In this document: piece by piece, positions 5,219 through 56,500 of the stretch
How the letters are laid out: the number at the start of each line of letters is the position of its first letter
Numbering within the stretch: position 1 is the stretch's first letter
DNA from: Eledone cirrhosa
Taxonomy: Eukaryota
Length of the DNA: 64,000 nucleotides
Direction: 5' to 3'
NCBI GenBank assembly: GCA_964016885.1
Contig: OZ024752.1
Location: 42,036,001 to 42,100,000 of the forward strand
Translations under genes and position numbers: made by a program
The notes under the pieces: model-generated
Databases searched by the model: none
The model's input: the letters and a program-made list of their open reading frames with translations, nothing else
What the model was told of the DNA's origin: nothing

Positions 5219-5293
5219 TGATTGACAAACGTTTCGTTTTCGATTAAAATAACAGGAATATTCATTCCTGATATATTAATCTCTTCAGAATCA
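5219..5293 (-). ncRNA. Type I hammerhead ribozyme-like fold (with a 6-nt insertion)
   Basis: Minus strand: UGAUU-CUGAAGA-stem II (GAUUAA...UUAAUC)-GAAAAC-GAAA-CGUUUG-UC-AAUCA. Confidence 0.55.
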
Positions 5294-5294
5294 C

Positions 5295-5650
5295 GGCATG
5301 ATCACCTTCCCGTTCTGCGGTGGCAAACCCCTCGTCTGGGATGCCACTTGCACCGACACTTTCTCCAGCCGCAACCTGGTGCAGTCTGCGACTAACCCAG
5401 GTTCTGCTGCACGTCGGGCTGAAGAGGTCAAACTCCTCAAATACCGGTCGCTCTCCGACAGGTTTGCGGTTGTACCCTTGGCAGTGGAGACTACAGGTGT
5501 CCTCGGCCCTAGGGCTACCTCCCTACTCACCACCATAGGCGCTGAACTGGCCAGCCGCAGGTGTGAGCCTCGCGAGTTGGAATGGCTTTTCCAGCGCGAG
5601 TCCCTTACCGTCCTCCGGGGAAATGCCTTCTCCATTCTGTCCGCCGGAGC
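5295..5650 (+). mobile_element. CRE-clade-like non-LTR retrotransposon 3' fragment (restriction-like endonuclease domain)
   Basis: GKPLVWDATCTDT...AARRAEEVKLLKY..L...VPLAVETTGVLG...LFQR.S..VLRGNA matches the PD-(D/E)xK RLE C-terminus; 5' truncated. Confidence 0.75.
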
Positions 5651-6054
5651 TGTGGGGAGGCCATCAATACGATTGACTGACTTGTCATTATATCAGTCAA
5701 CACATTCTAACACGTTGAATACCATTATCGACTCTATTGTGGAGGGAGGTGGATTGGCAGTATCGGTAGAGAGTCGGACGCCTTGCTTTCCAGCATAGTT
5801 ACGTCCCTTTACGATCTAAGTTCAAATCCTGCCGAGGTTGACTTTGCCTTTCATCCTTACAGGGTCGATAAAATAAAGTACCAGTAATGCACTGGGTAAT
5901 TGCAGGCCTTGTGCCTAAAGTAGAAACAATTATCGACTCTAATGTGTCTGGAACAATATTTCGTAATATCACATAAATATTTACCAAAAACATGACCATA
6001 AGACAATCATAGAAGTCTGAAAACGTAAACAACTCCTTCATCTGCTTGTGTTAT

Positions 6055-6646: not shown

Positions 6647-6813
6647 TAAGGAAATGTGGTAAGGAACCAGGTGGACCATAACGCACCAAAGTACTCAATA
6701 CTTAGGGTAGTAGAGTGGGTAATAGGAAGAAGTAAGACCCCGACGGCTGAGCTCAAGCCGTTTTTTAGCCGTCGAAACGGCTTGAGCTCAGCCGTCGGGG
6801 TCTTACTTGTTCC

Positions 6814-6844
<31 letters not shown>

Positions 6845-8785: not shown

Positions 8786-8995
8786 ATAGGAACGAGTAGG
8801 ACCCCGACGGCTGAACTCAAGCCGATCCGACGGCTAATTCTGGACTAAAATCTTTTAGTCCAGAATTAGCCGTCGAAACGGCTTGAGCTCAGCCGTCGGG
8901 GTCCTACTCGTTCCTATTACCCACTCTACTACCCTAAGTATTGAGTACTTTGGTGCGTTATGGTCCACCTGGTTCCTTACCACATTTCCTTCGTT
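8786..8995 (+). mobile_element. ~200-bp TA-inserted element with 5' inverted duplication (family A)
   Basis: TAGGAAC..GACCCCGACGGCTGAGCTCAAGCCG..inverted..TACCCACTCTAC..GAGTACTTTGGTGCGTTATGGTCCACCTGGTTCCTTACCAC; copies at 6646-6815(-), 12645-12805(-), 18705-18880, 25237-25310, 27900-27975(-), 31995-32116, 33121-33316, 37498-37696. Confidence 0.8.
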
Positions 8996-9092: not shown

Positions 9093-9148
9093 ACTGCCTG
9101 ATGAGGTCGTAGCCATTCAATGGCTATCATCGAAATATATATAGCAGT
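9093..9148 (+). ncRNA. Minimal type I hammerhead ribozyme (Penelope-type)
   Basis: ACUGC-CUGAUGA-GGU..UAGCCAU/AUGGCUA..AUC-GAAA-UAUAUA-UA-GCAGU; palindromic stem III segment; AATAAA directly downstream. Confidence 0.85.
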
Positions 9149-9339
9149 AAATAAAGGATTATGAGTTAGTTCATGCAATTGACTTATGTTTCGTCACTCT
9201 CTCTCTCTCTCTATATATATATATATGTATATATATATATAGTGATGGAACACTGGAAGCTAATATCCGTAGTGGTAGAGCACTCAGTCCATGGGACGAG
9301 TTAGGTAGAAGTGGTTACACAACAGTTAGTTCACCATAC

Positions 9340-9377
9340 CGAGAACAATTGTTTCACTTTAGCGGATCCTCAGCTCG
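9340..9377 (-). ncRNA. Minimal hammerhead candidate with weak stem II
   Basis: Minus strand: CGAG-CUGAGGA-UCCGCUAAAGU-GAAA-CAAUUG-UU-CUCG; lies in a TA-flanked element with a 28-bp inverted repeat (9361-9424). Confidence 0.55.
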
Positions 9378-9707
9378 TAATGGACATGATTGTACCCATG
9401 TCTATTACGAGCTGAGGATCCGCTTCTATATATATATATATATATATACATATTGTTATACTTGGGGAGGGTCATATTGTTGTAATAATATTGCTAGCCA
9501 GCACCACAACCACCACCATCACCACCACCACCACCACCACCACCACCACTGCACCTAGCCACCACTACTTGCACCACCACCAACACCACTGTTCCTATCC
9601 CCAACACCACCAGTACCTTCTCCACCACCATCAGCACCACCACCATCAGCACCACCACCATCATCATCATCATTGTGCCAAACTGAAAGGATATTGAAAA
9701 GTATATA

Positions 9708-10122: not shown

Positions 10123-10176
10123 TATATATATATAAATATATATATAAGAACAAAAGATGGTTAAAAGAGTTCCATG

Positions 10177-10247
10177 TATTTTATTATGCGCATTTCAAAA
10201 ACAAATATCATCATGCAATAATATTTGTGTTTTCATCAGATAAAATA
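10177..10247 (-). ncRNA. Minimal type I hammerhead ribozyme
   Basis: Minus strand: UAUUUUAU-CUGAUGA-stem II-GAAA-UGCGCA-UA-AUAAAAUA; same family as 11767-11837. Confidence 0.8.
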
Positions 10248-10300
10248 GGAAGACATGATATGAAGGTTAAAAAACACTTGTGGATAGTGCAGTTTTAAAT

Positions 10301-11088
<788 letters not shown>

Positions 11089-11231
11089 AGATAGATAGAT
11101 AGATAGATAGATAGATATGATTCCAGTTCCTCAGTGAAATAACAACCCAACCAGGAACTGGGCATATCAGAGTATTGACAAGGTTAAACACCTCAAAAAC
11201 ATGTGTACTCGTCTCTACCACACTAATTCGG

Positions 11232-11286
11232 ACTGCCTGAAGAGGTTACAGCCAAAGATGGCTGTCACCGAAATATATATAGCAGT
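11232..11286 (+). ncRNA. Minimal type I hammerhead ribozyme
   Basis: ACUGC-CUGAAGA-GGU.ACAGCCA/UGGCUGU.ACC-GAAA-UAUAUA-UA-GCAGU-AAUAAA; stem II covaries with the 9093 copy. Confidence 0.87.
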
Positions 11287-11468: not shown

Positions 11469-11551
11469 GGAGGTGAGTTTTATTGTAGTACAATAAAGCA
11501 ATGCAGATATCGGATAAGAAGCACTCTACAGTTTGTAGGACTGGAGTATAC

Positions 11552-11867
11552 ATAATATAAGATCAAAAGATGGTTAAAGGAGTTCCATGTATTTTATTAT
11601 GCGCATTTCAAAAACAAACATCATCATGCAATAATATTTGTGTTTTCATCAGATAAAACAGGAGAACATGATATGAAGGCTAAAAAACACTTGTGGATAG
11701 TGCAGTTATGTTGATTTAAAACTGCACTATCCACAAGTGTTTTTTAGCCTTCATATCATGTTCTCCTGTTTTATCTGATGAAAACACAAATATTATTGCA
11801 TGATGATGTTTGTTTTTGAAATGCGCATAATAAAATACATGGAACTCCTTTAACCATCTTTTGATCT

Positions 11868-11875
<8 letters not shown>
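11552..11875. repeat. Perfect inverted repeat, 156-bp arms, 12-nt spacer
   Basis: 11552-11707 is the reverse complement of 11720-11875. Confidence 0.92.
11767..11837 (+). ncRNA. Minimal type I hammerhead ribozyme (mirror copy on minus strand at 11590-11660)
   Basis: UGUUUUAU-CUGAUGA-AAA.ACAAAUAUUA/UGAUGUUUGU.UUU-GAAA-UGCGCA-UA-AUAAAAUA. Confidence 0.82.
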
Positions 11876-11898
<23 letters not shown>

Positions 11899-12491: not shown

Positions 12492-12538
<47 letters not shown>

Positions 12539-12800
12539 AGATCAAAAGATGGTTAAAGGAGTTCCATGTATTTTATTATGCGCATTACATATATATATAT
12601 ATATATGTATATATGTATATATATACGACATATATATATTATATATAACAAAGGAATTGTGGTAAGGAACCAGATGGACCATAACGCACCAAAGTACTCA
12701 ATACTAAGTGTAGTAGAGTGGGTAATAGGAAAAAGTCGTCGAAACGCTAGAAATAGCCGTCGAAACGGCTTGAGCTCTGCCGTCGGGTCATTCTTTTTCC

Positions 12801-12861
<61 letters not shown>

Positions 12862-15980: not shown

Positions 15981-16355
15981 ATGGGTGAACACGAAGCAGA
16001 GTATAGTTTTAACACGGGGAAAGTTGCAACTTTCGGAATTGTTGACTATGTGATATTTGCCATAACACTTTTAGTGTCAGTATGCATTGGATTTTTTACG
16101 CCATCAAGGACCGACATACGAAAACAACGAAATCGTTATCTCCTTGCCGGAGGTAATATGTCTGTAGGACCCGTGGCCCTTTCGTTGGTTGCCAGCTTCA
16201 TGTCGGCTATCACTCTTCTAGGTACCCCTGCAGAGATCTATAACTTTAACACGATGTTCATGGACATGACTCTCGGTTATATCTTTGCCATGTTCTTGGC
16301 TGCTCATGTATATATTCCTATACTGTATCGACTAAACATCACCAGTGTCTACGAA
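15981..16355 (+). CDS. SLC5A8-like: SLC5 transporter exon 1 (MGEHE...ITSVYE)
   Basis: ATG at 15981; motifs DYVIFAITLLVS, LLAGGNM, SFMSAITLLGTPAEIY; donor GTAAGT at 16356, phase 0. Confidence 0.93.
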
Positions 16356-18527: not shown

Positions 18528-18669
18528 TATGTATGTATGTATGTATATATATATTTGAAAAATTCGGAACCCGAGTTCGGATCTAGCTGTTGAAACGGCA
18601 AGAGCTCAACCGTCGGTGTCCCGAATTTTTCATATTACCCACTGTCTAATTGGTTTCTACCGCCTCTAT

Positions 18670-18713
<44 letters not shown>

Positions 18714-18908
18714 AGTGTCAGTACCCCGACGGCTGAGCTCCTGCCGTCGGATCTAATTGTCGAAACGGTCGGAGCTCAGCCGTCGGGTCCTGACGCTTTT
18801 CATATTACCCACTACCTTAAGTATTGAGTACTCTGGTGTGTTATGGTCTACCTGTATCTTACCACACCCTCTTTGTTATATATATATATATATATATGTG
18901 TGATATAA

Positions 18909-20056: not shown

Positions 20057-20292
20057 AATTAGCAAAATCCAACGGAGGGCATATTCCGTTGGCTTGCAAG
20101 CTAAAAACACATACACACTTTTGGCACAAGGCCACCAATTACCCCCAGTGTATTACTGGTACTTTATTTTATCGACCCGTAAGGATGAAAGGCAAAGTTA
20201 ACCTCGACTGGAGTTGAACTCAGACCGTAAAGGGCCGTAACTCTATGCTGAAAAGCATGGCGTCCCAACCCACTACCGGTACTGCCAATCCA

Positions 20293-22630
20293 AATAATTA
20301 TTTCTACTATAGGCACAAGGCCAGCTATTATCTCAGTGTATTACTGGTACTTTATTTTATCGACCCCGTAAGTGATGAAAGGCAAAGTTAACCTCAGCGG
20401 GATTTGAACTCAGAACGTAAAACGCCATAACTCTATGCTGCAAAGCATGGTGCCCGACGTTAAATAATTGTTTCTACTTTTGGGCACAAGGCCAGCAAAT
20501 TACCCAGTACATTACTGGTACTTTATTTTATCGACCCGTAAGGATGAAAGGCAAAGTTAACCTCAGCGGGATTTGAACTCAGAACGTAAAACGCCATAAC
20601 TCTATGCTGCAAAGCATGGTGCCCGACGTTAAATAATTGTTTCTACTTTTGGGCACAAGGCCAGCAATTACCCAGTACATTACTGTACTTTATTTTATCG
20701 ACCCCGTAAGGATGAAAGCAAAGTTAACCTCAGCGGGATTTGAACTCAGAACGTAAAACGCCATAACTCTATGCTGCAAAAGCATGGTGCCCGACGTTAA
20801 ATAATTGTTTCTACTTTAGGCACAAGGCCAGCAAATTACCCAGTACATACTGGTACTTTATTTTATCGACCCCGTAAGGATGAAAGGCAAAGTTAACCTC
20901 AGCGGATTTGAACTCAGAACGTAAAACGCCATAACTCTATGCTGCAAAGCATGGTGCCCGACGTTAAATAATTGTTTCTACTTTAGGCACAAGCCAGCAA
21001 ATTACCCAGTACATTACATGGTACTTTATTTTATCGACCCCGTAAGGATGAAAGGCAAAGTTAACCTCAGCGGATTTGAACTCAGAACGTAAAACGCCAT
21101 AACTCTATGCTGCAAAGCATGGTGCCCGACGTTAAATAATTGTTTCTACTTTTGGGCACAAGGCCAGCAAATTACCAGTACATTACTGGTACTTTATTTT
21201 ATCGACCCGTAAGGATGAAAGGCAAAGTTAACCTCAGCGGGATTTGAACTCAGAACGTAAAACGCCATAACTCTATGCTGCAAAGCATGGTGCCCGACGT
21301 TAAATAATTGTTTCTACTTTAGGCACAAGGCCAGCAAATTACCCAGTACATACTGGTACTTTATTTTATCGACCCCGTAAGGATGAAAGGCAAAGTTAAC
21401 CTCAGCGGATTTGAACTCAGAACGTAAAACGCCATAACTCTATGCTGCAAAGCATGGTGCCCGACGTTAAATAATTGTTTCTACTTTTGGGCACAAGGCC
21501 AGCAAATTACCAGTACATTACTGGTACTTTATTTATCGACCCCGTAAGGATGAAAGGCAAAGTTAACCTCAGCGGTGATTTGAACTCAGAACGTAAAACG
21601 CCATAACTCTATGCTTGCAAAGCATGGGTGCCCGACGTTAAATAATTGTTTCTACTTTTGGGGCACAAGGCCAGCAAATTACCCAGTACATTACTGGTAC
21701 TTTATTTTATCGACCCGTAAGGATGAAAGGCAAAGTTAACCTCAGCGGGATTTGAACTCAGAACGTAAAACGCCATAACTCTATGCTGCAAAGCATGGTG
21801 CCCGACGTTAAATAATTGTTTCTACTTTAGGCACAAGGCCAGCAAATTACCAGTACATTACTGGTACTTTATTTTATCGACCCCGTAAGGATGAAAGGCA
21901 AAGTTAACCTCAGCGGGATTTGAACTCAGAACGTAAAACGCCATAACTCTATGCTGCAAAGCATGGTGCCCGACGTTAAATAATTGTTTCTACTTTTGGG
22001 CACAAGGCCAGCAATTACTCCAGTACATTACTGGTACTTTATTTTATCGACCCCGTAAGGATGAAAGGCAAAGTTAACCTCAGCGGGATTTGAACTCAGA
22101 ACGTAAAACGCCATAACTCTATGCTGCAAAGCATGGTGCCCGACGTTAAATAATTGTTTCTACTTTTGGGCACAAGGCCAGCAAATTACCCAGTACATTA
22201 CTGGTACTTTATTTTATCGACCCCGTAAGGATGAAAGGCAAAGTTAACCTCAGCGGGATTTGAACTCAGAACGTAAAACGCCATAACTCTATGCTGCAAA
22301 GCATGGTGCCCGACGTTAAATAATTGTTTCTACTTTAGGCACAAGGCCAGCAAATTACCCAGTACATTACTGGTACTTTATTTTATCGACCCCGTAAGGA
22401 TGAAAGGCAAAGTTAACCTCAGCGGGATTTGAACTCAGAACGTAAAACGCCATAACTCTATGCTGCAAAGCATGGTGCCCGACGTTAAATAATTGTTTCT
22501 ACTTTTGGGCACAAGGCCAGCAATTACTCCAGTGCATTACTGGTACTTTATTTTATCGACCCCGTAAGGATGAAAGGCAAAGTTAACCTCGGCGGGATTT
22601 GAACTCAGACTGTAAAGGGACGTAACTATA
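20293..22630 (-). repeat. Tandem array of about 14 head-truncated SINE units (~169-bp period)
   Basis: Repeating aataattgtttctact...gcatggtgcccgacgtta; all units except the last share diagnostic variants. Confidence 0.92.
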
Positions 22631-23196
22631 GCAACTATATTCATCTATAAAGAAACCACAGGTGTCAATACTCTCAACTCGTGTTCAAAGCGACAAATAC
22701 TAATGTTTGCCTATCGATTTAAGAAAATCAATATTAGAATAAAAATCAGGCCTTTAATAATTGTTTCTACTATTGGCACAAGGCCAGCAATTACCCAGTA
22801 CATTACTGGTACTTTATTTTATCGACCCCCCGTAAGGATGAAAGGCAAAGTTAACCTCGGCGCGATTTGAACTCAGAATGGCAAGGGCCGTAACTCTATG
22901 CGTCAAAGCATGGCGTCCGACCCTCTACCAATCCTGCCAGTTCACCGCCCTAATAATAGGCCTTTAATAATATTTTCATTTCTTGTGAATGAAATTACAG
23001 ATGTTTTCTAAACTGAACAGGTTTGGGGCCTTTTTGTGGAAATATACATACATTTTGTGGAAATATACATACAAGGGCGGTGCCCCAGCATGGCCTCAGC
23101 CGGATGGCTGAAACAGGTAAAAGAGTAATGTGTCTTAGGATGAAACCACACAAAGTTAAATTTACATATTTAAAGATTTAAAGTAGCTCAAATTCT

Positions 23197-23202
23197 GTAG
23201 TT

Positions 23203-23268
<66 letters not shown>

Positions 23269-23304
23269 ATGGTGGTGGTGGTAGTGGTGGTGGTGGCGGC
23301 GGCG

Positions 23305-23340
<36 letters not shown>

Positions 23341-23376
23341 ATGGTGGTGGTGGTAGTGGTGGTGGTGGCGGCGGCG

Positions 23377-23424
<48 letters not shown>

Positions 23425-23460
23425 ATGGTGGTGGTGGTAGTGGTGGTGGTGGCGGCGGCG

Positions 23461-23493
<33 letters not shown>

Positions 23494-23529
23494 ATGGTGG
23501 TGGTGGTAGTGGTGGTGGTGGCGGCGGCG

Positions 23530-23595
<66 letters not shown>

Positions 23596-23631
23596 ATGGT
23601 GGTGGTGGTAGTGGTGGTGGTGGCGGCGGCG

Positions 23632-23715
<84 letters not shown>

Positions 23716-23751
23716 ATGGTGGTGGTGGTAGTGGTGGTGGTGGCGGCGGCG

Positions 23752-23787
<36 letters not shown>

Positions 23788-23826
23788 ATGGTGGTGGTGG
23801 TGGTAGTGGTGGTGGTGGCGGCGGCG

Positions 23827-23889
<63 letters not shown>

Positions 23890-23994
23890 ATGGTGGTGGT
23901 GGTAGTGGTGGTGGTGGCGGCGGCGGTAGTAGTAGTAGTAGTAGTAGTAGTAGTAATGGTGGTGGTGGTGGTAGTGGTGGTGGTGGCGGCGGCG

Positions 23995-24030
<36 letters not shown>

Positions 24031-24066
24031 ATGGTGGTGGTGGTAGTGGTGGTGGTGGCGGCGGCG

Positions 24067-24102
<36 letters not shown>

Positions 24103-24141
24103 ATGGTGGTGGTGGTGGTAGTGGTGGTGGTGGCGGCAGCG

Positions 24142-24195
<54 letters not shown>

Positions 24196-24234
24196 ACGGT
24201 GGTGGTGGTGGTAGTGGTGGTGGTGGCGGCGGCG

Positions 24235-24267
<33 letters not shown>

Positions 24268-24303
24268 ATGGTGGTGGTGGTAGTGGTGGTGGTGGCGGCG
24301 GCG

Positions 24304-24354
<51 letters not shown>

Positions 24355-24416
24355 ATGGTGGTGGTAGTGGTGGTGGTAGTGGTGGTGGTAGTGGTGGTGG
24401 TGGCGGCGGCGGCGGT

Positions 24417-24474
<58 letters not shown>

Positions 24475-24513
24475 ATGGTGGTGGTGGTAGTGGTGGTGGT
24501 GGCGGCGGCGGCG

Positions 24514-24592
<79 letters not shown>

Positions 24593-24605
24593 CAGCAGTA
24601 GTAGT

Positions 24606-24650
<45 letters not shown>
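23197..24650. repeat. Compound trinucleotide array (GTA)n-ATG-(GTG)n-GTA-(GTG)4-(GCG)3
   Basis: Recurrent higher-order unit with variable (GTA)n length. Confidence 0.95.
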
Positions 24651-25001
24651 GTGTGGTCCTCAAAATGTAACTTAATCTACCACCCATAATTCCAGTCTCT
24701 CAACTTCACAAGAGAATGGAGGGCAACATATTAATTCCTTGATATATGTGTGTAGAGTTATTTCAACTGAGCTAGAATACATACCAGCCGACAATAAACT
24801 TAATTTAAATATAAAGGTACTTGAATGTAGGCCTAGACATAGAACAATGTGAGCTGTAAATGTCATTTTTTCGTTTCATCAATCCACGCTAACCCGTAAA
24901 ACAGAGGTGATACCCCAAAACAAAATGAATGTTGTTAATAACAATTAAAAAAAGGCCTAAACTTTGACTAAAATGTGTTTTATAGCTATACTTTAATATA
25001 G

Positions 25002-25238: not shown

Positions 25239-26962
25239 GGAAAATGTTTAACCCCGACGGCAGAACTCAAGCCGTTTCGACGGCTATTTCTGGACTAAAT
25301 TAGAATTTTTAGCGTGGTAATAAATAGCCGAACTTTTCAAGGAGTAATTCCTGATATGGACAGAACGCCAGTTCATTGCAGGATTAAACCCCCAGCTATT
25401 GCTGGTACTCATTTTCAGCTGAGTATACTGGAGCAACATGAAATGAAGTGTTTTGCTCAAGAACACGCGCAACCCAGGAATCGAACCCACGGCATTATGA
25501 TCGTAAGTCCAACACCCTAACCACTAGGCCACATGCTTCCACATATATAGACTATACTAGTACTAAATTTACATATTTGCATAACCCCATGTCTAAATCC
25601 GGTATTGGTATAAGTCATATAACTAAAGTTAGATATCTTTAAGTAGGAAAGGATTATGGGTGGTAGACTTGGTTCACCAGAAGCACATGCCTATCCTGTA
25701 TCATTGGTTTACTTAACTATAACAGGTTTTATTTTAAAAAAATGAAATAAAATAAAATAAATTACTTGGATAATGAAACTTAGGCAGAGAAAATATGCTT
25801 ATCTCTGTAAAGTTAACAAACCCAAACGGTGATTTGGTTAGCACACAGTAACCAGTTTTCCTATCTCAAATTGCTTACATCCTTTGGTCATAACAATTTT
25901 CCAGTATTTTATCTGGTCGCTTAAATTATCTTTTAAAACTCCACATACGACTTAATAAGAGGAAACAGTTACTATAAGGTTGACATCATTGATACTTAGA
26001 CGATCTAATAATTGGCTATAAAGACATATAAATCTTCGCTAGAAGTTGTGACTGTTTGATAGTATCAGTAATGGAAAGACCAACGGAAACAAAGTTTCTT
26101 TAGTTTCATTTGACGATCGGTTACTTTTCTTTTTTCTTTTTGTTTCTTTTTTTTTTTTGTCCTTTTGTTCTCGTTGATGTTTCTAAAATAGGTTATAAAA
26201 CACACCAGCCCTTGTTGTTGCTTTCACGACATAATAATTGTTTCTACTTTTGGCACAAGGCCAGCTATTATCTCAGTGCATTGCTGGTACTTTATTTTAT
26301 CGGCCCCGTAAGGATGAAAGGCAAAGTTAACCTCGGCGGGATTTGAACTCATCTTAATAATTGTTTCTACTTTAGGCACAAGGCCAGCAATTACCCAGTA
26401 CATTACTGGTACTTTATTTTATCGGCCCCGTAAGGATGAAAGGCAAAGTTAACCTCGGCGGGATTTGAATACATACAACTCCATAAAGCTATTAAATAAA
26501 TGGATTAAATTAAATAGAATTATTTAATTCACATACGAACAGAAATAACCAGACTGTGGACTGTAAACTCCACTTTGAATTTTGACGTTGCGTGCTGACT
26601 AGTAAAGGAATAAAAGGCTAACAGAATAAAAGACAAACAGAAAGAAAGATTAACAGAATAAAAGAATATTAGTAAACGGGATGAGAATGATGTGTAAGCA
26701 ATAAAGGTGTTGTTGATGGAATATAATGTTGATTATATCAATTACTGAGGTGAACGAAGAAAATCACATAGAAGGGATGTTATTGACTCAGGGGAATTAC
26801 AGAATACATCAGTGAATCCCTTTTCTTCTTCTTCAGACTTGGTTCGTTTAAACTGTTCAACTGTTCTCTTTGGTGGCAAAGAACATCTGTTATATGAATA
26901 TATTTACTCACATAACTTTCTATAGGAAGTTTATATGTAAATATATATATATATATATATAT

Positions 26963-27427: not shown

Positions 27428-27685
27428 ACTTAGAAAATGTAGAAACCTCAAGCGCAGAAAATAACTGTAACCACAGTCGATTGCTATAAATAATAGCATA
27501 GACGGGAAAAAATATGGTCAGCAGCCGCTACGAGGAATCGAACTCCGTAACTCTTTAATTTCGACTGACCGCTTTCAACCACAAGCAGACATATAATATA
27601 TATATATATATATATTATATATAGATGAGATTCTACAGGACTAGAACTGTTTCATTCTTTAGAAATCATCAGGAATTTGGATGGG

Positions 27686-27734
27686 GATTCCTGATGATTT
27701 CTAAAGAATGAAACAGTTCTAGTCCTGTAGAATC
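27686..27734 (+). ncRNA. Type I hammerhead ribozyme, GUA cleavage triplet
   Basis: GAUUC-CUGAUGA-U.UUC-UAAA-GAA.U-GAA-ACAG-UUCUAGUC-CUGU-A-GAAUC; 4-bp stem III; mirror copy in the inverted arm. Confidence 0.78.
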
Positions 27735-27817
27735 TCATCTATATTAACACTTTTATACTCTGCAATGTATTGAGTACCTTACTTACTGTGGTTACCTCCG
27801 ATTCAACCCGGAATAAC

Positions 27818-27877
<60 letters not shown>

Positions 27878-28182
27878 TTATTTATTTATATTTATATATA
27901 TAACAAAGAAAGTGTGGTAAGGAACCAGGTGGACCATAACGCACCAGAGTACTCGATACTTAGGGCAGTAGAGTGAAGAGGAGAGGAGAGAGTGGGGGTA
28001 GAGAGAGGGGGAGGCGGGAGAGAGAGGGTAGAGAGAGACAGAGAGAGGTGGAGAAAGAGAGGGGTAGAGAGAGAGCCAGAGAGAGGGAAGAAAGAGAGAG
28101 AGAGAGAGAGGGGGGAGTGGGGAGGGAGAGAGTGAGAGAGAGAGCGAGAGGGGGGAGTGGGGAGGGAGTGGTATCGCTTCCT

Positions 28183-28569
28183 GATTCGAAGTAGTCCTCC
28201 ATCCAGAGCCAATCATCATTTTAATAACTGTCACGCTTCGATCTCCATCCAAACCCAACCACCATTTTAATAGCAGTCACACTTCGATCTCTATCCAGAA
28301 CCAATCACCATTTTAATAGCAGTCACAGTTCGATCTCCATCCAAGGCCAATCACATTTTCATTAGTTTGTCAGATACTCTGACAAACTAATGAAAATGTG
28401 ATTGGCCTTGGATGGAGATCGAACTGTGACTGCTATTAAAATGGTGATTGGTTCTGGATAGAGATCGAAGTGTGACTGCTATTAAAATGGTGATTGGGTT
28501 TGGATGGAGATCGAAGTGTGACAGTTATTAGAATGATGATTGGCTCTGGATGGAGGACTACTTCGAATC
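28183..28569. repeat. Inverted repeat, 192-bp arms, 3-nt loop, with internal ~46-bp tandem units
   Basis: 28183-28374 vs 28378-28569, few mismatches. Confidence 0.9.
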
Positions 28570-31980: not shown

Positions 31981-32114
31981 TTATATATATATAAAGAGAG
32001 CGACGGCTGAGCTCCGGCCGTTTCGACAGCTAGTTCTGAACTAACGCATAACCACAGTATCGAGTACTCTGGCGCGTTAGGGTCTAACTGGTTCCTTACC
32101 ACACTTCCTTTTCG

Positions 32115-33022: not shown

Positions 33023-33125
<103 letters not shown>

Positions 33126-33314
33126 AACCAGTAAGACCCCCGACAGCTGAGCTCAAGCCGTTTCGACGGCTAATTCTGGACCAGAATTAGCCGTCGAAAC
33201 GGCTTGAGCTCAGGTGTCGGGGTCTTACTGGTTCCTATTACCCACTCTACTACCTCAAGTATTGAGTACTTTGGTGCGTTATGGTCCACCTGGTTCCTTA
33301 CCACATTTCCTTCG

Positions 33315-37208: not shown

Positions 37209-37317
<109 letters not shown>

Positions 37318-37410
37318 GGTAATTCCGAAGGAAAGGCAAAGGAAAAAAGAGTGCTCTATGTATAGAACAGAGCTGTTTAATTAGAAAGTGAACAACACAA
37401 AATATAACTA

Positions 37411-37481
37411 CTCCATTACCAAAGGAGGTTTCTGGATCCCAGACAATAACAGTATATGCCTGGATTGGTCGTCAGACAGAG
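37411..37481 (-). ncRNA. Type I hammerhead candidate, GUA triplet
   Basis: Minus strand: CUCUGU-CUGACGA-..AUCCAGGCA/UGUCUGGGAU..-GAA-ACC-UCCUUU-GGU-A-AUGGAG; base of stem II is mismatched. Confidence 0.5.
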
Positions 37482-37694
37482 ATGTTATATATATATATAG
37501 GAACGAGTAGGACCCCGACGGCTGAGCTCAAGCCGCTTCGACGGCAAATTTCGACGGCTAATTAGCCGTCGAAACGGCTTGAGCTCAGCCGTCGGGGTCC
37601 TACTCGTTCCTATTACCCACTCTACTACACTACCCTAAGTATTGAGTATTTTGGTGCGTTATGGTCCACCTGGTTCCTTACCACACTTCCTTCG

Positions 37695-37785
<91 letters not shown>

Positions 37786-37790
<5 letters not shown>

Positions 37791-38220
37791 GATATTAAAC
37801 AAATGGAAACTATATTTATAAAACCATATTTATTTCATTATACATATTTCGGGGATACCATATTAAAAATATGGCATGCCTTCTTCAGATAAAATACAAT
37901 ATATAAACAGTTTTATAAATAATTTTGACGTACCATAAATATTGAGCAACCTTTATGTAGGAAGCCGGTTTGGTAGTGAGATGTTTATAAATATTTAGTG
38001 TTAAGCACTAAATATTTATAAACATCTCACTACCAAACCGGCTTCCTACATAAAGGTTGCTCAATATTTATGGTACGTCAAAATTATTTATAAAACTGTT
38101 TATATATTGTATTTTATCTGAAGAAGGCATGCCATATTTTTAATATGGTATCCCCGAAATATGTATAATGAAATAAATATGGTTTTATAAATATAGTTTC
38201 CATTTGTTTAATATCGTATA
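37786..38220. repeat. Perfect inverted repeat, ~215-bp arms, 5-nt loop
   Basis: 37786-38000 is the reverse complement of 38006-38220. Confidence 0.93.
38110..38175 (+). ncRNA. Minimal type I hammerhead ribozyme (mirror copy on minus strand at 37831-37896)
   Basis: UAUUUUAU-CUGAAGA-AGGC-AUGCCAUAUU/AAUAUGGUAU-CCCC-GAAA-UAUGUA-UA-AUGAAAUA. Confidence 0.8.
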
Positions 38221-38900
38221 TCTACTCCAAAACTTGTCGAGTGCTTTATATCAGTTATAAAATATTTACTTGTTGTAACCCAACAATTTTAAATAAAACT
38301 TTTGCATATATATATATATATATATATTGTGCTATATGCTGTTTCGAGTGAGGAACGGCCTTCAGGAACGAGTGAAGTTCTTGAACCGATGTCCCACTGA
38401 TCTATATTCTACACCATACTAAATATCAGGATACATACTAATATTATGTCATAGGGCGGTGGATTGGCTGTATCTATAGAGGGTCTGACGCCATGCTTTA
38501 CAGTAAAGAGTTACGGCCCTTTATGGTCTGAGTTCAAATCCCGCCGGGGTTAACTTTACCTCTCATCCTTACGCGGTCGATAAAATAAAGTACCAGTAAT
38601 ACACTAGGATAATTGCTGGCCTTGTGTGCCAAAAGTAGAAACAATTATATCATATGCTATATACTAACTTTATTCGATAACAGTAGGGCATAGATTTTTT
38701 TAAAATCCAAGTGAGGCGTGGGAAAAATCGGCTGAGAAACATTGAACTAAATGGAACTGAGGGTATTAACATGTATAAAGTCTATTGAATTAAATTTAAA
38801 ATGGATAAAATAATTAAAATAAATACAAAATTTAATCTGTTCTTGGCGTTGTAAAAAGAAAGGTAGGAAGAGAATTGAAGCAAAGTGTGTAGATAGATAG

Positions 38901-47338: not shown

Positions 47339-47427
47339 CTAGTTCCTCTCTTTGTCATGGATACACTTCAGAATCTTCCCGGGATTCCTGGAATGTTCCT
47401 GGCTTCCATTTTTAGTGGAACACTAAG
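47339..47427 (+). CDS. SLC5A8-like: SLC5 exon 8 (LVPLFVMDTLQNLPGIPGMFLASIFSGTL)
   Basis: ttccAG acceptor, GTAAAT donor, 89 nt, phase 0 to 2. Confidence 0.94.
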
Positions 47428-47481
47428 GTAAATATGACATCCATCTTCGTATTTATTCTAAACCAGAGTCTATTAAAGTGA

Positions 47482-48060
47482 AGGCTAAAGATGGCTTAGT
47501 GGTTAAAGCATTGGGCTTGCAATCGAAAGGTTGTGAATTCAATTCTCGGACCGGATTATGTGTTGTTTCCTTGAGCAAGACACTTTATTTCACGTTGCTC
47601 CAGTTTTACTCAGCTGTAGAAATGAGATGATAGGGACTGGGGTCCCTATCATTAAATCACCCAAGACACCTCCAGCGAGATATACCTTGGAGGAGGCCAG
47701 CTGAACCTGCATAGGTGTGAGCTGTCACACACACACACACACCGCACCACACCACACCACACCACACCACACCACACCACACCACACCACACCACACCAC
47801 ACTACACCACACCAGTGAAGGCGCATGGCTTAGTAGTTAGAGCATTGGGCTTGCAATCGAAAGGTTGTGAGTTCAATTCTCGGACCGGGTGATGTGTTGT
47901 GTCCTTGAGCAAGACACTTTATTTCACGTTGCTCCAGTTTTACTCAGCTGTAGAAATGAGATGATAGGGACTGGGGTCCCTATCATTAAATCACCCAAGA
48001 CACCTCCAGCGAGATATACCTTGGAGGAGGCCAGCTAAACCTGCATAGGTGTGAGTTGTC
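47482..48060 (+). mobile_element. Two duplicated CORE-type tRNA SINEs
   Basis: TGGCTTAGTGGTT A-box, GTTCAATTC B-box, CORE-like GTGTCCTTGAGCAAGACACTT; related copies at 18040-18255(-), 25330-25540(-), 40700-40945(-). Confidence 0.75.
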
Positions 48061-48811
48061 ACACACACACAAAATCACGCCCACCCCCCGCACACACAAA
48101 ATCACCCCCCTCCACACACACACACACACACACAAAATCAAAATAAAAAAAAACAATCCACAAATTCAAACAAAACAAAAGCGCGCCCAAAATGAAATGT
48201 GCGTCGAACAATAATTGTTTGTTTTTCTTTGAGAAATTACATGAAATGGAGCTGGTTTCTATACTGTACATTGACAGTTAAGTATACCAGTAAACTGTTA
48301 GGTCCCCATTTATCTCCCTTTCCTTCTCTCTCTTTCTCACCCTCTCTCTTCTCTCTCTCTATATATATATATATCTCCTCTCTTTCGCTCTCTCTTTCTC
48401 TTTCTCACTCTCTCTTTCCCACTCTCTCTCTTTCTCACTCTCTCTCCCTCTCTCTCTCTTCTCTATATATGCCTCTCTCTCTCTCTCTCTTTCTCTCCCA
48501 CCCTCTCTCTTTTTCTCACTTACTTTCTCTCTCAATCTCTCTCTCTCTCTCTCCCCTTCTCTCTTCCTTACCCTCGCTCTCTCTCTCCCTCCCCCTCTCC
48601 TCTCTCTTCCTCAACCCTCTCTCGCCGCCCCCTGCTAACATTACACAACCATGTTTTCTAGTACAGAACATTTCAATGTTGCAGTTGTCAGCTATTTTAG
48701 GAATCTATTTCTTTTCAAACGAAACAACATAAATAAAACTGGTGATAAAATATAGCTTTTCTTTTGACAGAGACGAGGGAGGAGGTAAAAGAAATATATA
48801 CACACACTGGC

Positions 48812-48844
<33 letters not shown>

Positions 48845-48909
48845 AGTAGGTATATATATATATATATATAAGAATAATATTAAGAAAGAAGCTGATGTTA
48901 CCCCCTCTC

Positions 48910-48940
<31 letters not shown>

Positions 48941-48961
48941 GTATGTATATATGTATGTATG

Positions 48962-49020
<59 letters not shown>

Positions 49021-49162
49021 GTTCAAGTGAACTATAACTTCCTCCTATATATATATATGTATATATAAATATATATACATATATATATATATGTATATAC
49101 ATATATATATATACATATATATATATATGTATATATATACATATATATATACATATATATTT

Positions 49163-49224
<62 letters not shown>

Positions 49225-49258
49225 ATATATATATATAGAGAGAGAAAAAGATGGAGAG

Positions 49259-49323
<65 letters not shown>

Positions 49324-49726
49324 ATGGAGAGATAAGTTTTTGATATTTGATGATGACAATTGCTGTTGTATGAAGAATTGGGGAGGAATTTAGGTCAGGT
49401 GTTGGTACCACAAAATATCCTATTTATATAGTTTTATGGGTTACATAATTTAAGAACCTTTGGCACAGTAAATGTTAGAGGAAAACAGGATGATGATGGC
49501 TGCAACTCGATTTTGAGTAATGCCATCACTTGATACTTAAGCATGAATATCATGGACGTGGCTTTTTAGTCCTGCTAGGAACTTGCCTATGATCAGTAAT
49601 ATCAATGCATCGCAAAAAATGCCACATATGCCTGTATGTATGTATCTTTTTGGTAAATATCATCGAAAACGAGTTGGCAGCCACCATGTATGTATGTATG
49701 TATGTTTGTATGTATATATGTATGTA

Positions 49727-50225
49727 TGACTTTGGACATCCTGCAGGACTAAAAACAAAACCTGTCAAAGGGCAAAGGAGCTCTTAAGAGTCAATGGCCA
49801 ACCAAAATCACCGGGAGAGATGACCCCCTTAGCCTTTGTCAAGGCAGAATTCTAGGAGAAGGAAAACTCTGATATAACACCTGCAACCCTGATGGTATCC
49901 AATGATGTTGACTTGTTCTTCTTTTTGGTAAATATTATCTTGGTTAAGAGAGTGGGACTGGCTTTGTGCGGTGCCTTTGCTCACTATAAAAGCTTCACGG
50001 CACAGGCATTGCTTTGTATTTGGAGATCTCTCTGCACTTGTCGTCACATGGTACCATGGGCCCAGCAATATGTGTCAATAATTGTCACAAGTATAGTGTT
50101 TGTACCAGAGTTTTCAAGTCGCTGGCTGGACTAAAAAGTCACATTCGTTCAGCGCATCGGTAGGGGTTCTCCTACATGGATATAAAGTAGTGGCCGTACT
50201 CGAAAACGAGTTGGCAGCCACCATG
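49727..50225 (+). mobile_element. Non-autonomous RTE-like element with (TATG)n tail
   Basis: CTAGGAGAAGGAAAACTCTGA motif reminiscent of RTE 5' regions; embedded in (TATG)n; inverted homolog at 60768-61385. Confidence 0.55.
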
Positions 50226-50305
50226 TATGTATGTATGTATGTATGTATGTATGTATGTATGTATGTATGTATGTATGTATGTATGTATGTATGTATGTAT
50301 GTATG

Positions 50306-50339
<34 letters not shown>

Positions 50340-50527
50340 TGTATGTATGTATGTATGAATGTATGTATATATATATATTTATATATATACGTTATTCCGG
50401 GTTGAATCGGAGGTAACCACAGTAAGTAAGGTACTCAATACATAGCAGAGTATAAAAGTTTTAATATAGATGAGATTCTACAGGACTAGAACTGTTTCAT
50501 TCATTAGAAATCATCAGAAATCATCTG

Positions 50528-50576
50528 GATTCCTGATGATTTCTAATGAATGAAACAGTTCTAGTCCTGTAGAATC
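50528..50576 (+). ncRNA. Type I hammerhead ribozyme, GUA triplet (mirror copy on minus strand at 50474-50522)
   Basis: Same fold as 27686-27734; the only difference is in the stem II loop (UAAU vs UAAA). Confidence 0.78.
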
Positions 50577-50593
50577 TCATCTATATTAAAATA

Positions 50594-50629
<36 letters not shown>

Positions 50630-51192
50630 TAGTAAATTTGTATTCCAATGTTACTAAGTAGTTGCATTGGATGGAGTCAACCGACGTCAGAGATTGCTCA
50701 ACGTATAATAAAGTGTGTTTTAAAATCTCTATACTGTAACCATCGTTTGAAAACGACTTTTTCTTTTTTTAAATGCATATAATGTTACCTTTTTACACCA
50801 CCGTTTGCAGATTTCTGTCTAATATGTTTATACACAGGATATGGCTTTCTATAATAATAGTACTGAACACTGTTTTTCTGGACCCCTTTAGAAATAACCT
50901 GCTACTATAATAGCCCTAATAACTTGTCTGTGACACTGTACCACTTTGACCCCTTTAACTAAATTTTGTCCGAACAACACCACTAGAAGAATCTACTTCC
51001 CCGCCAACCTTAGCATGCCTCATTAAGCTCACTGCTGCCAAAACATTCTCTCCTCACAATCTCTACTAGTCTGACAGTCTTAAATCATAAGACTCCCTCC
51101 ACCTTACTCACTTCCCTCTTCCCCTTCTCTTCCTACCTCCTTCTTTATCTTTTATCTAGTGTATAAAATATTTTCATATCATTCTAATACAA

Positions 51193-51309
51193 AGGTCTGA
51201 AGACATGGTGTGTGTGCTTACAGTGTACCTTCGGTTTATGATAATATTTGTATATTATTCAAATAGCGAGGTATAGGTAACCCATACACTATAGAAACAA
51301 TTGTTACCT
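51193..51309 (+). ncRNA. Type I hammerhead with ~90-nt extended stem II, GUU triplet
   Basis: AGGU-CUGAAGA-C.AUGGUGUGUG...CAUACACUAU.A-GAAA-CAAUUG-UU-ACCU-AAUAAA; inner helices UGUACCU/AGGUAUA and GAUAAUAU/AUAUUAUU. Confidence 0.75.
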
Positions 51310-51355
51310 AATAAATTCTATATACCCGCATTTCCATTTCGTAAACTTCTTCTCC

Positions 51356-51388
<33 letters not shown>

Positions 51389-51529
51389 TTATATATCATC
51401 ATCATCATCATCATCATTTTACGTCCGCTTTTCCCTGCTTAGCATAGCATCTCTCTACTTGTCACGGTCCTTCGTCCTCTCCTCCGTATATTTTATTATA
51501 TATATACATATACATATATATATATATAC

Positions 51530-51628
<99 letters not shown>

Positions 51629-51742
51629 CATATACATATATATGTATATATATATATATATATACATACACATACATATATATGTATATATATATATATG
51701 TATATGTATATATATACATATATATGTATATGTATGTATATG

Positions 51743-51774
<32 letters not shown>

Positions 51775-51828
51775 TATATATTTATATATATTTATATATT
51801 TATATATTTATATATATATATATATATT

Positions 51829-51906
<78 letters not shown>

Positions 51907-52102
51907 ATATATGTATATATTTATATGTATGTATATATATATACACACACACATATACATAATAAATTGAATAAAAAATACGTATACAATAAATAAATAA
52001 ATAAGTTTCTTTAAACGACAATTTCTTACCATATATGGAAATATGGTAATTTGTTGAATAGTTATTTTCTTAGTTATAAGGACTACTTTGAAAGTATGTG
52101 TG

Positions 52103-52138
<36 letters not shown>

Positions 52139-52726
52139 CGGTGGGGGGGGGGGGGGCACTCCTGGTTTTTGTTTAGCCCCAGACCAGATTTGATGAAGTA
52201 GATTCATGATAAAAAGGCATTCCTGCTGTGAACATCCCGCCTTTTCTGTTACAGCGTAACTAAGATCCTATCATCCTATATGTCTTTTATTTTATAGAGA
52301 CCAAAGTGTAATTTGAGGGAGATTTGGTTGTTATTTCTAGGTTTCTGTTAGGTGTTGCCAACGCTACAGGGCCTGACATCATAGTTGGTGTCGAAGGGGA
52401 GATAATTTAGCTCAGTTATATATAAATGCATGTGTGCGTTGTCCCGTAACTCATCAGAGGCTATGGCAAAAAAATACTCGCTTCTAAAATGACTCACCGT
52501 GAGATGAAGCCCGAGGTCTCTTGATTGCAAAGCGAACTATGGCTGGACATATATATGTTTACACACAAATGTATGTCTTATTACGAGGTCGATAAAATAA
52601 AGTACCAGTAATGCACTGGGGTCGATACAATAAAGTACCAGTAATGTACTGGGATCGATTTAATCGACTTTCCCCTCTCCCCAAATTGTTTGCGTTGTAC
52701 CTAAATCAGAAACCGTTATTTTACAG

Positions 52727-53518: not shown

Positions 53519-56500
53519 TCTTCTTCTTCTGATCGTCCAAAAGAGTGTCAGTTACAAAGCTTGGCTAGATGTGGTTCCACCACAGCTGAACACATTGCTG
53601 TCGTTTCTCATTGAACTCTGCCAAGTCCAATGCTGTGCAGGGGTGTTCCAGCAGGGGGTATATCAGGAGGTTCTGCGAGGTACAATACTGCAGTCACAAC
53701 AACATCCCCATCTTTTAAATATCCCCTGCAGTCACACACAACATCCCCATCTTTTAAATATCCCCTGCAGTCACACACAACATCTCCATCTTTTAAATAT
53801 CCCCTGCAGTCACACACAACATCCCCATCTTTTAAATATCCCCTGCAGTCACACACAACATCTTCATCTTTTAAATATCCCCTGCAGTCACACACAACAT
53901 CCCCATCTTTTAAATATCCCCTGCAGTCACACACAACATCCCCATCTTTTAAATATCCCCTGCAGTCACACACAACATCCCCATCTTTTAAATATCCCCT
54001 GCAGTCACACACAACATCTCCATCTTTTAAATAATCCCTGCAGTCACACACAACATCCCCATCTTTTAAATATCCCCCACACAACATCCCCATCTTTTAA
54101 ATATCCCCTGCAGTCACACACAACATCTCCATCTTTTAAATATCCCCTGCAGTCACACACAACATCCCCATCTTTTAAATATCCCACACACAACATCCCC
54201 ATCTTTTAAATATCCCCTGCAGTCACACACAACATCTCCATCTTTTAAATATCCCCTGCAGTCACACACAACATCCCCATCTTTTAAATATCCCCTGCAG
54301 TCACACACAACATCCCCATCTTTTAAATATCCCCTGCAGTCACACACAACATCTCCATCTTTTAAATATCCCCTGCAGTCACACACAACATCCCCATCTT
54401 TTAAATATCCCCTGCAGTCACACACAACATCCCCATCTTTTAAATATCCCCTGCAGTCACACACAACATCTCCATCTTTTAAATATCCCCTGCAGTCACA
54501 CACAACATCCCCATCTTTTAAATATCCCCTGCAGTCACACACAACATCCCCATCTTTTAAATATCCCCTGCAGTCACACACAACATCCCCATCTTTTAAA
54601 TATCCCCTGCAGTCACACACAACATCTCCATCTTTTAAATATCCCCTGCAGTCACACACAACATCCCCATCTTTTAAATATCCCCTGCAGTCACACACAA
54701 CATCTCCATCTTTTAAATATCCCCTGCAGTCACACACAACATCCCCATCTTTTAAATATCCCCTGCAGTCACACACAACATCCCCATCTTTTAAATATCC
54801 CCTGCAGTCACACACAACATCCCCATCTTTTAAATATCCCCTGCAGTCACACACAACATCCCCATCTTTTAAATATCCCCTGCAGTCACACACAACATCC
54901 CCATCTTTTAAATATCCCCTGCAGTCACACACAACATCCCCATCTTTTAAATATCCCCTGCAGTCACACACAACATCCCCATCTTTTAAATATCCCCTGC
55001 AGTCACACACAACATCCCCATCTTTTAAATATCCCCTGCAGTCACACACAACATCCCCATCTTTTAAATATCCCCTGCAGTCACACACAACATCTCCATC
55101 TTTTAAATATCCCCTGCAGTCACACACAACATCCCCATCTTTTAAATATCCCCTGCAGTCACACACAACATCCCCATCTTTTAAATATCCCCTGCAGTCA
55201 CACACAACATCTCCATCTTTTAAATAATCCCTGCAGTCACACACAACATCCCCATCTTTTAAATATCCCCCACACAACATCCCCATCTTTTAAATATCCC
55301 CTGCAGTCACACACAACATCTCCATCTTTTAAATATCCCCTGCAGTCACACACAACATCTCCATCTTTTAAATATCCCCTGCAGTCACACACAACATCTC
55401 CATCTTTTAAATATCCCCTGCAGTCACACACAACATCCCCATCTTTTAAATATCCCCTGCAGTCACACACAACATCCCCATCTTTTAAATATCCCCTGCA
55501 GTCACACACAACATCCCCATCTTTTAAATATCCCCTGCAGTCACACACAACATCCCCATCTTTTAACTATCCCCTGCAGTCACACACAACATCCCCATCT
55601 TTTAAATATCCCACACACAACATCCCCATCTTTTAAATATCCCCTGCAGTCACACACAACATCTCCATCTTTTAAATATCCCCTGCAGTCACACACAACA
55701 TCCCCATCTTTTAAATATCCCCTGCAGTCACACACAACATCCCCATCTTTTAAATATCCCCTGCAGTCACACACAACATCCCCATCTTTTAAATATCCCC
55801 TGCAGTCACACACAACATCCCCATCTTTTAAATATCCCCTGCAGTCACACACAACATCCCCATCTTTTAAATATCCCCTGCAGTCACACACAACATCCCC
55901 ATCTTTTAAATATCCCCTGCAGTCACACACAACATCCCCATCTTTTAAATATCCCCTGCAGTCACACACAACATCCCCATCTTTTAAATATCCCCTGCAG
56001 TCACACACAACATCCCCATCTTTTAAATATCCCCTGCAGTCACACACAACATCCCCATCTTTTAAATATCCCCTGCAGTCACACACAACATCCCCATCTT
56101 TTAAATATCCCCTGCAGTCACACACAACATCTCCATCTTTTAAATATCCCCTGCAGTCACACACAACATCCCCATCTTTTAAATATCCCCTGCAGTCACA
56201 CACAACATCTCCATCTTTTAAATATCCCCTGCAGTCACACACAACATCCCCATCTTTTAAATATCCCACACACAACATCCCCATCTTTTAAATATCCCAC
56301 ACACAACATCCCCATCTTTTAAATATCCCCTGCAGTCACACACAACATCCCCATCTTTTAAATATCCCCTGCAGTCACACACAACATCCCCATCTTTTAA
56401 ATATCCCCTGCAGTCACACACAACATCCCCATCTTTTAAATATCCCCTGCAATCACACACAACATCTTCATCTTTTAAATATCCCCTGCAGTCACACACA

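Follow-up and report, generated by a model that had tools for sequence, protein, structure and literature searches.

Penelope-like elements (PLEs) of the Hydra clade are defined phylogenetically by a single ORF with a Hydra-type RT plus a GIY-YIG endonuclease at the C-terminus. File S2 of PMC8557442 tabulates the hammerheads of 25 Hydra families; counted by eye from this table, a U·U pair stands at the base of stem II in 14 families, stem III reads acag/ctgt in four, the cleavage site is GUA in 11 and loop III is 1–3 nt long in all 25. The available metadata from the same source record a preference for (TA)n in 26 of 27 Hydra families, and one family is annotated there with an inverted 5′-truncated copy. 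Such a copy, together with a one-sided tail, is also the layout of EN+ PLEs in the available parts of PMC8557442 and PMC3846280. In vitro, the protein of an Anolis PLE makes nicks in AT-rich DNA on both strands and extends each, using two internal starts with the tail between them (available text of PMC11167929). PLE hammerheads are described, in the portions of the literature available, as weak and dimer-dependent, and long, monomer-active helices III are reported from fungal and protist PLEs (available parts of PMC4209133 and PMC7229834). For octopods, 31 recently active PLE families are given for O. vulgaris in the available part of PMC13282606; among the matches listed for Octopus together with hammerhead ribozyme, only Craig et al. 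2021 concerns PLEs.

The window analysed here is a stretch of 64,000 nt from Eledone cirrhosa (contig OZ024752.1, positions 42,036,001–42,100,000), 28% of which is microsatellite. It contains one SLC5 gene on the + strand (exons 15981–63195, 13 exons mapped, PF00474), which resembles a sodium-coupled monocarboxylate transporter and whose protein has its best matches in Argonauta and Octopus (73–76%). Within exon 1, the octopod proteins match 16091–16135 only in a shifted frame, through two compensating indels, and the overall frame is open; this is either an assembly error or a genuine lesion. Two related inserts, termed family A, lie in the gene: copy 1 (27619–27818, +) in the first mapped intron and copy 2 (50390–50591, −) in intron 47426–52723. 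An earlier sequence-only reading had assigned both to SLC5 introns, which is correct, yet one gene holds both. The two inserts are hairpin-shaped fold-backs flanked on both sides by (TA)n, and their features are as follows.

27619–27676, −: copy 1, inverted tail-less arm; hammerhead core at 27672, cleavage predicted after 27634, stem I of only 4 bp
27677–27686: copy 1, junction, TTGGATGGGG, private to this copy
27684–27736, +: copy 1, type I hammerhead; stem I of 7 bp, CUGAUGA at 27691–27697, GAAA at 27710–27713, 3-bp stem II plus U·U with UAAA loop, stem III ACAG/CUGU with 8-nt loop III, GUA site with predicted cut after 27729
27715–27726, +: copy 1, 6-nt tandem duplication (AGTTCT AGTCCT), which makes the 8-nt loop III and the CUAG palindrome
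27745–27818, +: copy 1, tail of 74 nt, carried by a single arm, with (TA)n after it
27757–27778, +: copy 1, bulged tail hairpin, ACUC-UGC-aau-GUA-uu-GAGUAC
50390–50458, −: copy 2, tail of 69 nt past the arm; tail hairpin begins at 50451
50459–50517, −: copy 2, direct arm; hammerhead core at 50517, cleavage predicted after 50479, loop II UAAU
50518–50532: copy 2, junction; 10-nt direct repeat (50506–50515 = 50516–50525)
50527–50591, +: copy 2, inverted tail-less arm; core at 50533, stem I of 6 bp, predicted cut after 50571

The arms of copy 1 (27619–27676 and 27687–27744) are complementary at 58/58 positions around a centre of 10 nt, and those of copy 2 (50459–50517 and 50533–50591) at 59/59 positions around a centre of 15 nt, AAATCATCTGGATTC. 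Direct arm and tail are 97.0% identical between the copies over 135 nt. The two arms of each copy agree in loop II, which reads UAAA in copy 1 and UAAU in copy 2. The earlier description of a common body and tail with different centres, each copy having its own loop II variant in both arms, is thus borne out. A type I hammerhead is present on both strands of each copy, one per arm, and both copies contain the CUGAUGA/GAAA core, the ACAG/CUGU stem III and the GUA site. All four arms have the type I core residues (C3-U4-G5-A6-N7-G8-A9, G12-A13-A14, A15.1-U16.1 and H17), with an open-ended stem I of 4–7 bp, a stem II of 3 bp plus the U·U pair and a stem III of 4 bp. The + strand hammerhead of copy 2 sits in the inverted, tail-less arm and not in the arm that carries the tail, which is a correction to the earlier reading. 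A relaxed hammerhead descriptor found 10 cores in the window, four of them in family A; 20 windows shuffled in blocks averaged 0.25. Searching Rfam with the direct arm gave no significant hammerhead (best RF00008, 11.8 bits, E 7.6), and the whole window gave microsatellite-driven miRNA matches only, among the 150 listed of 227.

To place these copies in a wider population, the 144-nt direct arm and tail (27677–27820) were aligned to the contigs of three public sequencing runs (X1, X4 and X5); 17 of the 24 runs listed contain part of this stretch. The aligned contigs numbered 8,995 in X1, 336 in X4 and 145 in X5. Family A is a common repeat, contig depth not being equated here with copy number. 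Read depth falls almost to zero left of 27686, and the centre of copy 1 is therefore private. The proposal of a repeated hammerhead family whose copies each have their own inversion junction is right. Upstream, the reads have other letters, ending CCCA, which by eye would yield a stem I of 6 bp. A 12-bp stem I, with the centre of copy 1 as its original 5′ strand, had also been considered; it was rejected because depth disappears left of 27686 and the reads have different upstream letters. Another idea, which concerns a single copy, is that the centre of copy 1 may be an A-to-I-edited copy of the arm start. The junction of copy 2 can alternatively be read as one C-to-T change.

The upstream loose ends of the contigs are long and varied, with a median of 56 letters in 210 contigs and one of 145. 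Their consensi hint at mutually compensating substitutions in the distal part of stem I (GGC/GCC and GAC/GUC), but the agreement is 0.4–0.98 and the register is off by one. Three further opposite-strand joints are present in the run contigs, although such joints may also arise from repeats. Across the catalytic core and the U·U pair all variants are below 3% in the three runs, and the UAAU loop variant is also below 3%. Between 27686 and 27732 the sole listed change sits in loop III, where it breaks the CUAG palindrome (3.7% in X4, 0.2% in X1). Three contigs of X1 contain a 78-nt head-to-tail unit (27686–27754 plus 9 letters), the joint of which has a depth of 343 against about a million at the same place; this unit, which is hammerhead only, could self-dimerize like a minimal retrozyme. 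In the aligned contigs, no position collects many molecule ends. Scans with the family motifs gave 0 matches in each of metagenome, viral and prokaryote contigs.

In the full hairpins, folding predicted that the arms pair with each other at −124 to −128 kcal/mol and offered no competing structure; the pair probabilities of stems I and III were 0.0000. The claim that the upstream arm can silence the ribozyme is consistent with these predictions. The intronic copies are likely to be silent, since the arms would pair and the antisense arm is transcribed first on either strand. In isolated arms, the pair probabilities of stem III are 0.01–0.05, and the monomer hammerhead lies above the minimum energy by 3.4 kcal/mol in copy 1 and 2.0 kcal/mol in copy 2. 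With the core held unpaired, and in energies that ignore concentration and tertiary contacts, the double hammerhead reached −11.2 and −10.3 kcal/mol per strand in copies 1 and 2, compared to −6.2 and −5.3 kcal/mol for the monomer. The suggestion that ACAG/CUGU allows this ribozyme to work as a monomer is therefore upheld in part: the 4-bp stem III with its 8-nt loop is able to close, but does so with low probability, and the dimer is better by about 5 kcal/mol per strand. Loop III keeps a centred CUAG palindrome. Among 840 permutations of the loop, at least 2 centred pairs were formed in 32 and equally good dimerization was seen in 105, so the palindrome is only moderately unusual. Our best guess is that the parent ribozyme would prefer the dimer, with weak monomer activity possible. 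Lunse et al. in 2017 reportedly dealt with dimeric PLE hammerheads, and may list similar stem III variants.

It had also been feared that the U·U pair at the base of stem II might abolish activity, which is not supported. Because variants at this pair stay below 3%, it is a family state rather than decay, and no variant of 3% or more occurs there in any of the three runs. Moreover, an axolotl ribozyme with U·U cleaves 22% in 1 h as a monomer and does better as a dimer (available part of PMC7229834); in axolotl HHR_Amex2, U·U stands at the base of stem II as in family A.

Family A was compared with the Hydra-clade PLEs in the available part of PMC8557442 (for example Hydra-1_aMil, Hydra-2_aMil, Penelope-1_NV, Penelope-1_SK and Hydra-1_oBim). 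In common are a type I hammerhead near the 3′ end and in sense, the CUGAUGA-U...U-GAA and ACAG/CUGU-A patterns, (TA)n targets and an inverted 5′-truncated copy. The distance from the cut site to the 3′ end is 89 nt in family A and, by eye, ∼97 nt in Hydra-2_Amil. Unlike these elements, family A has a loop III of 8 nt, a 6-nt duplication relative to the acag-tt-ctgt-a of Hydra-1_aMil, and a U/A-rich stem II of only 3 bp, and no ORF was seen. The published octopus element, Hydra-1_oBim, has a different ribozyme and is without the tail hairpin described below, and the available Naiad/Chlamys/Hydra supplement has no exact match to the family A motifs. ACAG/CUGU, GUA and U·U had been singled out as special features of the locus; since all three are listed among the Hydra ribozymes, they are traits of the clade. 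Motif scans and the 30 letters upstream tied no reverse transcriptase or endonuclease ORF to family A. Judged by ribozyme pattern, tail, target and layout, family A is likely to be Hydra-type, the ORF that defines the clade not being among these features. Its fold-back 3′ ends are a new family, but of a described retroelement class.

With the EN+ PLE unit and the Anolis element Poseidon (PAc), family A has in common a pseudo-LTR (pLTR) inverted head-to-head, a tail on one side, a target rich in A and T and two fixed 3′ end points, as far as the available parts of PMC3846280 and PMC11167929 describe them. The tails in the window are ∼70–85 nt, against 30–40 bp in published EN+ PLEs, and the family A insert, unlike these units, barely exceeds ribozyme and tail. 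With the PLE hammerheads and non-LTR retrozymes of Cervera and de la Pena (available parts of PMC4209133 and PMC7229834), family A shares type I topology, a palindromic loop III and the preference for the dimer, and opposite-strand hammerhead pairs have already been noted there for PLEs. In contrast to those ribozymes, family A lacks the G10.1-C11.1 pair and 220–350-nt tandem arrays, and combines, in an animal PLE, a stem III of 4 bp with a loop that can close. Its units in the window are single and inverted, whereas non-LTR retrozymes are tandems of ∼220–350 nt. MITEs have inverted repeats at both termini; here, one arm extends 69–74 nt beyond the inverted repeat. Intronic hammerheads of the RECK or C10orf118 type are single-copy and keep their position across species, whereas thousands of contigs align to family A. 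As a ribozyme or regulatory discovery the two inserts carry little weight, since insertion by retroelements of this known class would be expected to produce them.

Family A is not alone in the window, which has nine clear fold-backs in five families (A twice, B four times, and C, D and E), each with its own centre. The fold-back-plus-tail layout is common to four families besides A. The pieces of the other families, and of a sixth family (F), are as follows.

6649–6816, 8786–8990, 12652–12805, 18584–18866, 25251–25299, 27907–27975, 32001–32109, 33121–33311 and 37497–37691: family B, nine pieces
11547–11880, 10136–10299 and 12526–12589: family C, fold-back or single-arm hammerhead inserts in (TA)n
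37782–38300, 58562–58681, 58868–59131 and 59227–59523: family D, fold-back or single-arm hammerhead inserts in (TA)n
9243–9424: family E, hammerhead-bearing insert in (TA)n
9093–9148 and 11232–11286, +: family F, two minimal hammerheads with a long stem II and a UAUAUA palindrome

The outer ends are fixed in each family: in B the inverted arms stop at position 66–68 and the tailed arms at 139, and in D the corresponding positions are 220 and 291–296. In one insert of each of these families (B1 and D4), the upstream limit of the inverted arm lies beyond that of the tailed arm, by 10 and 48 nt, respectively. Single arms that have no tail also occur (C2, D2 and B5). Family B has the 3′ half of a hammerhead, with a 6-bp stem III, a GAGCUC palindrome and a GUC site; its tail is 73 nt long, its fold-back centres vary, and the CUGANGA half is absent from all nine pieces. 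Stem III is minimal and palindromic in families C and D. The two hammerheads of family F are not folded back and lie upstream of the mapped SLC5 exons. A further, single hammerhead adjoins a family B insert at 37316–37481 (−); it has a CUGACGA core, a 3-bp stem III with a non-palindromic 6-nt loop, a GUA site with a predicted cut after 37417, a tail hairpin and a (CA)n end.

The tails of families A–E all contain a hairpin of the form RCUC, an inner stem of 3–5 pairs, a 3′ bulge of 1–2 nt and GAGYRC. The inner stem differs by family, its pairs covarying (UGC/GUA, UACU/AGUA, CAGU/ACUG, CAA/UUG and GUCC/GGAC). The family B tail resembles that of family A (5/2000 shuffles as high), and the tails of families C and D are related (0/2000 shuffles as high). 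A descriptor built from families A–E and Hydra-2_Amil had 14 matches in the window, compared to a shuffled mean of 0.92 (maximum 4 in 100 shuffles); 13 of the 14 are non-independent because they fall within the families used for its design. The fourteenth (37373, −) was a blind match, with a hammerhead 44 nt upstream that the relaxed hammerhead scan had missed. When the inner letters were permuted, the rule was satisfied in 4.5–20% of trials, depending on the family. Six of the seven hammerhead families in the window have the hairpin, the exception being family F, whose members (9098 and 11237) do not match the descriptor.

Among the six Hydra consensi in File S7 of PMC8557442, in the part available, the same hairpin was recognized by eye in three: at the 3′ ends of Hydra-2_Amil and Hydra-2_Ajap and at the 5′ end of Hydra-1_Ajap. 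It is partial in Hydra-1_Crog and absent from Hydra-1_Amil and Hydra-1_Obim, again by eye. No description of it was found in the available PLE literature; one may exist in Repbase, in subscription papers or figures, or among the supplements on bioRxiv. The hairpin is the one new-looking feature of the inserts. It lies between the two fixed end points of the inserts and is conserved across corals, sea cucumbers and an octopod, and it is a likely candidate for a signal that binds or positions the protein of the element. As such, it offers a concrete RNA element to mutate in studies of how PLE proteins recognize RNA and form tails and inverted arms. More tentatively, and we would call this rather doubtful, the hairpin may be a signal of the whole Hydra clade that binds the protein and sets the two RT starts flanking it, dual-strand priming giving the fold-backs and the 6-nt duplication having given a stem III for both monomer and dimer cutting.

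Taking these data together, we consider it most likely that each element is the heavily 5′-truncated 3′ end of a Hydra-type PLE (a pLTR with hammerhead and tail), inserted as a head-to-head pair in (TA)n, its ribozyme being predicted to be inactive in place through pairing of the two arms. In the parent, the ribozyme would probably cleave after GUA in tandem transcripts, and would do so best as a double hammerhead that pairs via stem III and CUAG. The protein of the element would nick both strands of a TA run and prime reverse transcription from each, with the copy for the tail-less arm starting ∼15–20 nt past the ribozyme cut site and that for the tailed arm ∼89 nt past it. Both cDNA copies would halt close to the ribozyme's 5′ side and then be joined by template slipping or end-joining, so that each insertion would acquire a private centre. 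We lean slightly towards dual priming from both strands, on the strength of the longer inverted arms of B1 and D4, the tail-less single arms and the 10-nt direct repeat at the junction of copy 2. Against it, both arms of copy 2 carry the rare UAAU loop, for which snap-back copying or later arm-to-arm correction is a simpler explanation. Snap-back supposes the same PLE origin, with one cDNA folding and being copied until a TATAT patch anneals to the target, and with centres reshaped by opening and repair of the hairpin. The perfect arms that share UAAU fit this scheme, as do the outer ends at a TATAT or TAT patch in families A and B, and self-priming has been proposed for PLE palindromes (available part of PMC3846280). 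However, the longer inverted arms would require an extra deletion, so plain snap-back copying is insufficient for B1 and D4, although the unequal inner ends could alternatively have arisen from later deletions at the hairpin centre. Tail-less single arms occur without any fold-back, and extension of both strands has been seen in vitro (available part of PMC11167929). Snap-back is a serious possibility, if not the one we would choose.

Other explanations depart further from insertion of a truncated PLE end. Family A might instead be a retrozyme-like element, short and non-autonomous, that descends from a Hydra pLTR and spreads via small RNAs, tandem or circular, with the aid of a stem III functional in the monomer. 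Its high abundance, invariant core and 78-nt head-to-tail unit (three contigs of one run) would fit, as would an 8-nt loop III where the 25 Hydra families have 1–3 nt (File S2 of PMC8557442), and retrozymes have been argued to derive from pLTRs (available part of bioRxiv 2026.07.22.740005). We nevertheless think this unlikely: the tandem is absent from the window, the depth of its joint is minute, the upstream loose ends are long and varied, and the described units are 220–350 nt (available part of PMC7229834). It is very improbable that the antisense arm is a switch under selection, gating an active ribozyme in the intron and thereby regulating the SLC5 pre-mRNA. Both copies do lie in introns, where a complementary arm precedes the sense hammerhead, and active intronic hammerheads are known in amniotes (available part of PMC3088659). 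The sequence-only reading had hinted at a regulatory meaning of this order, but a head-to-head palindrome yields it on either strand and, because the geometry forces it, the order is no sign of regulation. Furthermore, the hairpin has no alternative fold, family A is a common repeat, and the same layout is found upstream of the mapped exons (6649–6816, 8786–8990 and 11547–11880) and in copies with no catalytic core (family B). More remote still is the idea that the palindromes are assembly artefacts from fold-back chimeric long reads. The microsatellite content of the window and the short frame-shifted stretch in SLC5 exon 1 would be compatible with such errors, but fold-backs are restricted to the ends of elements, their boundaries are constant within a family and their tails one-sided, and opposite-strand joints are present in independent contigs too.

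The window also contains repeats of other kinds. Part of the flank of copy 2 (49729–50222) recurs inverted 10 kb away at 60770–61266, with 96.6% identity over 498 nt; this duplicate reaches the microsatellite and is without the element. A near-perfect palindrome at 28183–28569 has 189-bp arms made of short tandem repeat units, in which the hammerhead core was not found. A dispersed repeat of ∼190 nt is present at 1101–1296 and some 30 further places, and in tandem at 20117–22630. An array of 39-nt units occupies ∼4.2 kb (53688–57917) and a triplet-repeat block 1.5 kb (23107–24700). Two ORF fragments, at 5280–5798 (+) and 10719–11183 (−), resemble what we take to be 3′ parts of non-LTR retrotransposons. 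Finally, in an animal group known for heavy A-to-I editing, the short perfect hairpins, which are frequent in these introns with at least nine in 64 kb, probably contribute a great deal of intronic double-stranded RNA.
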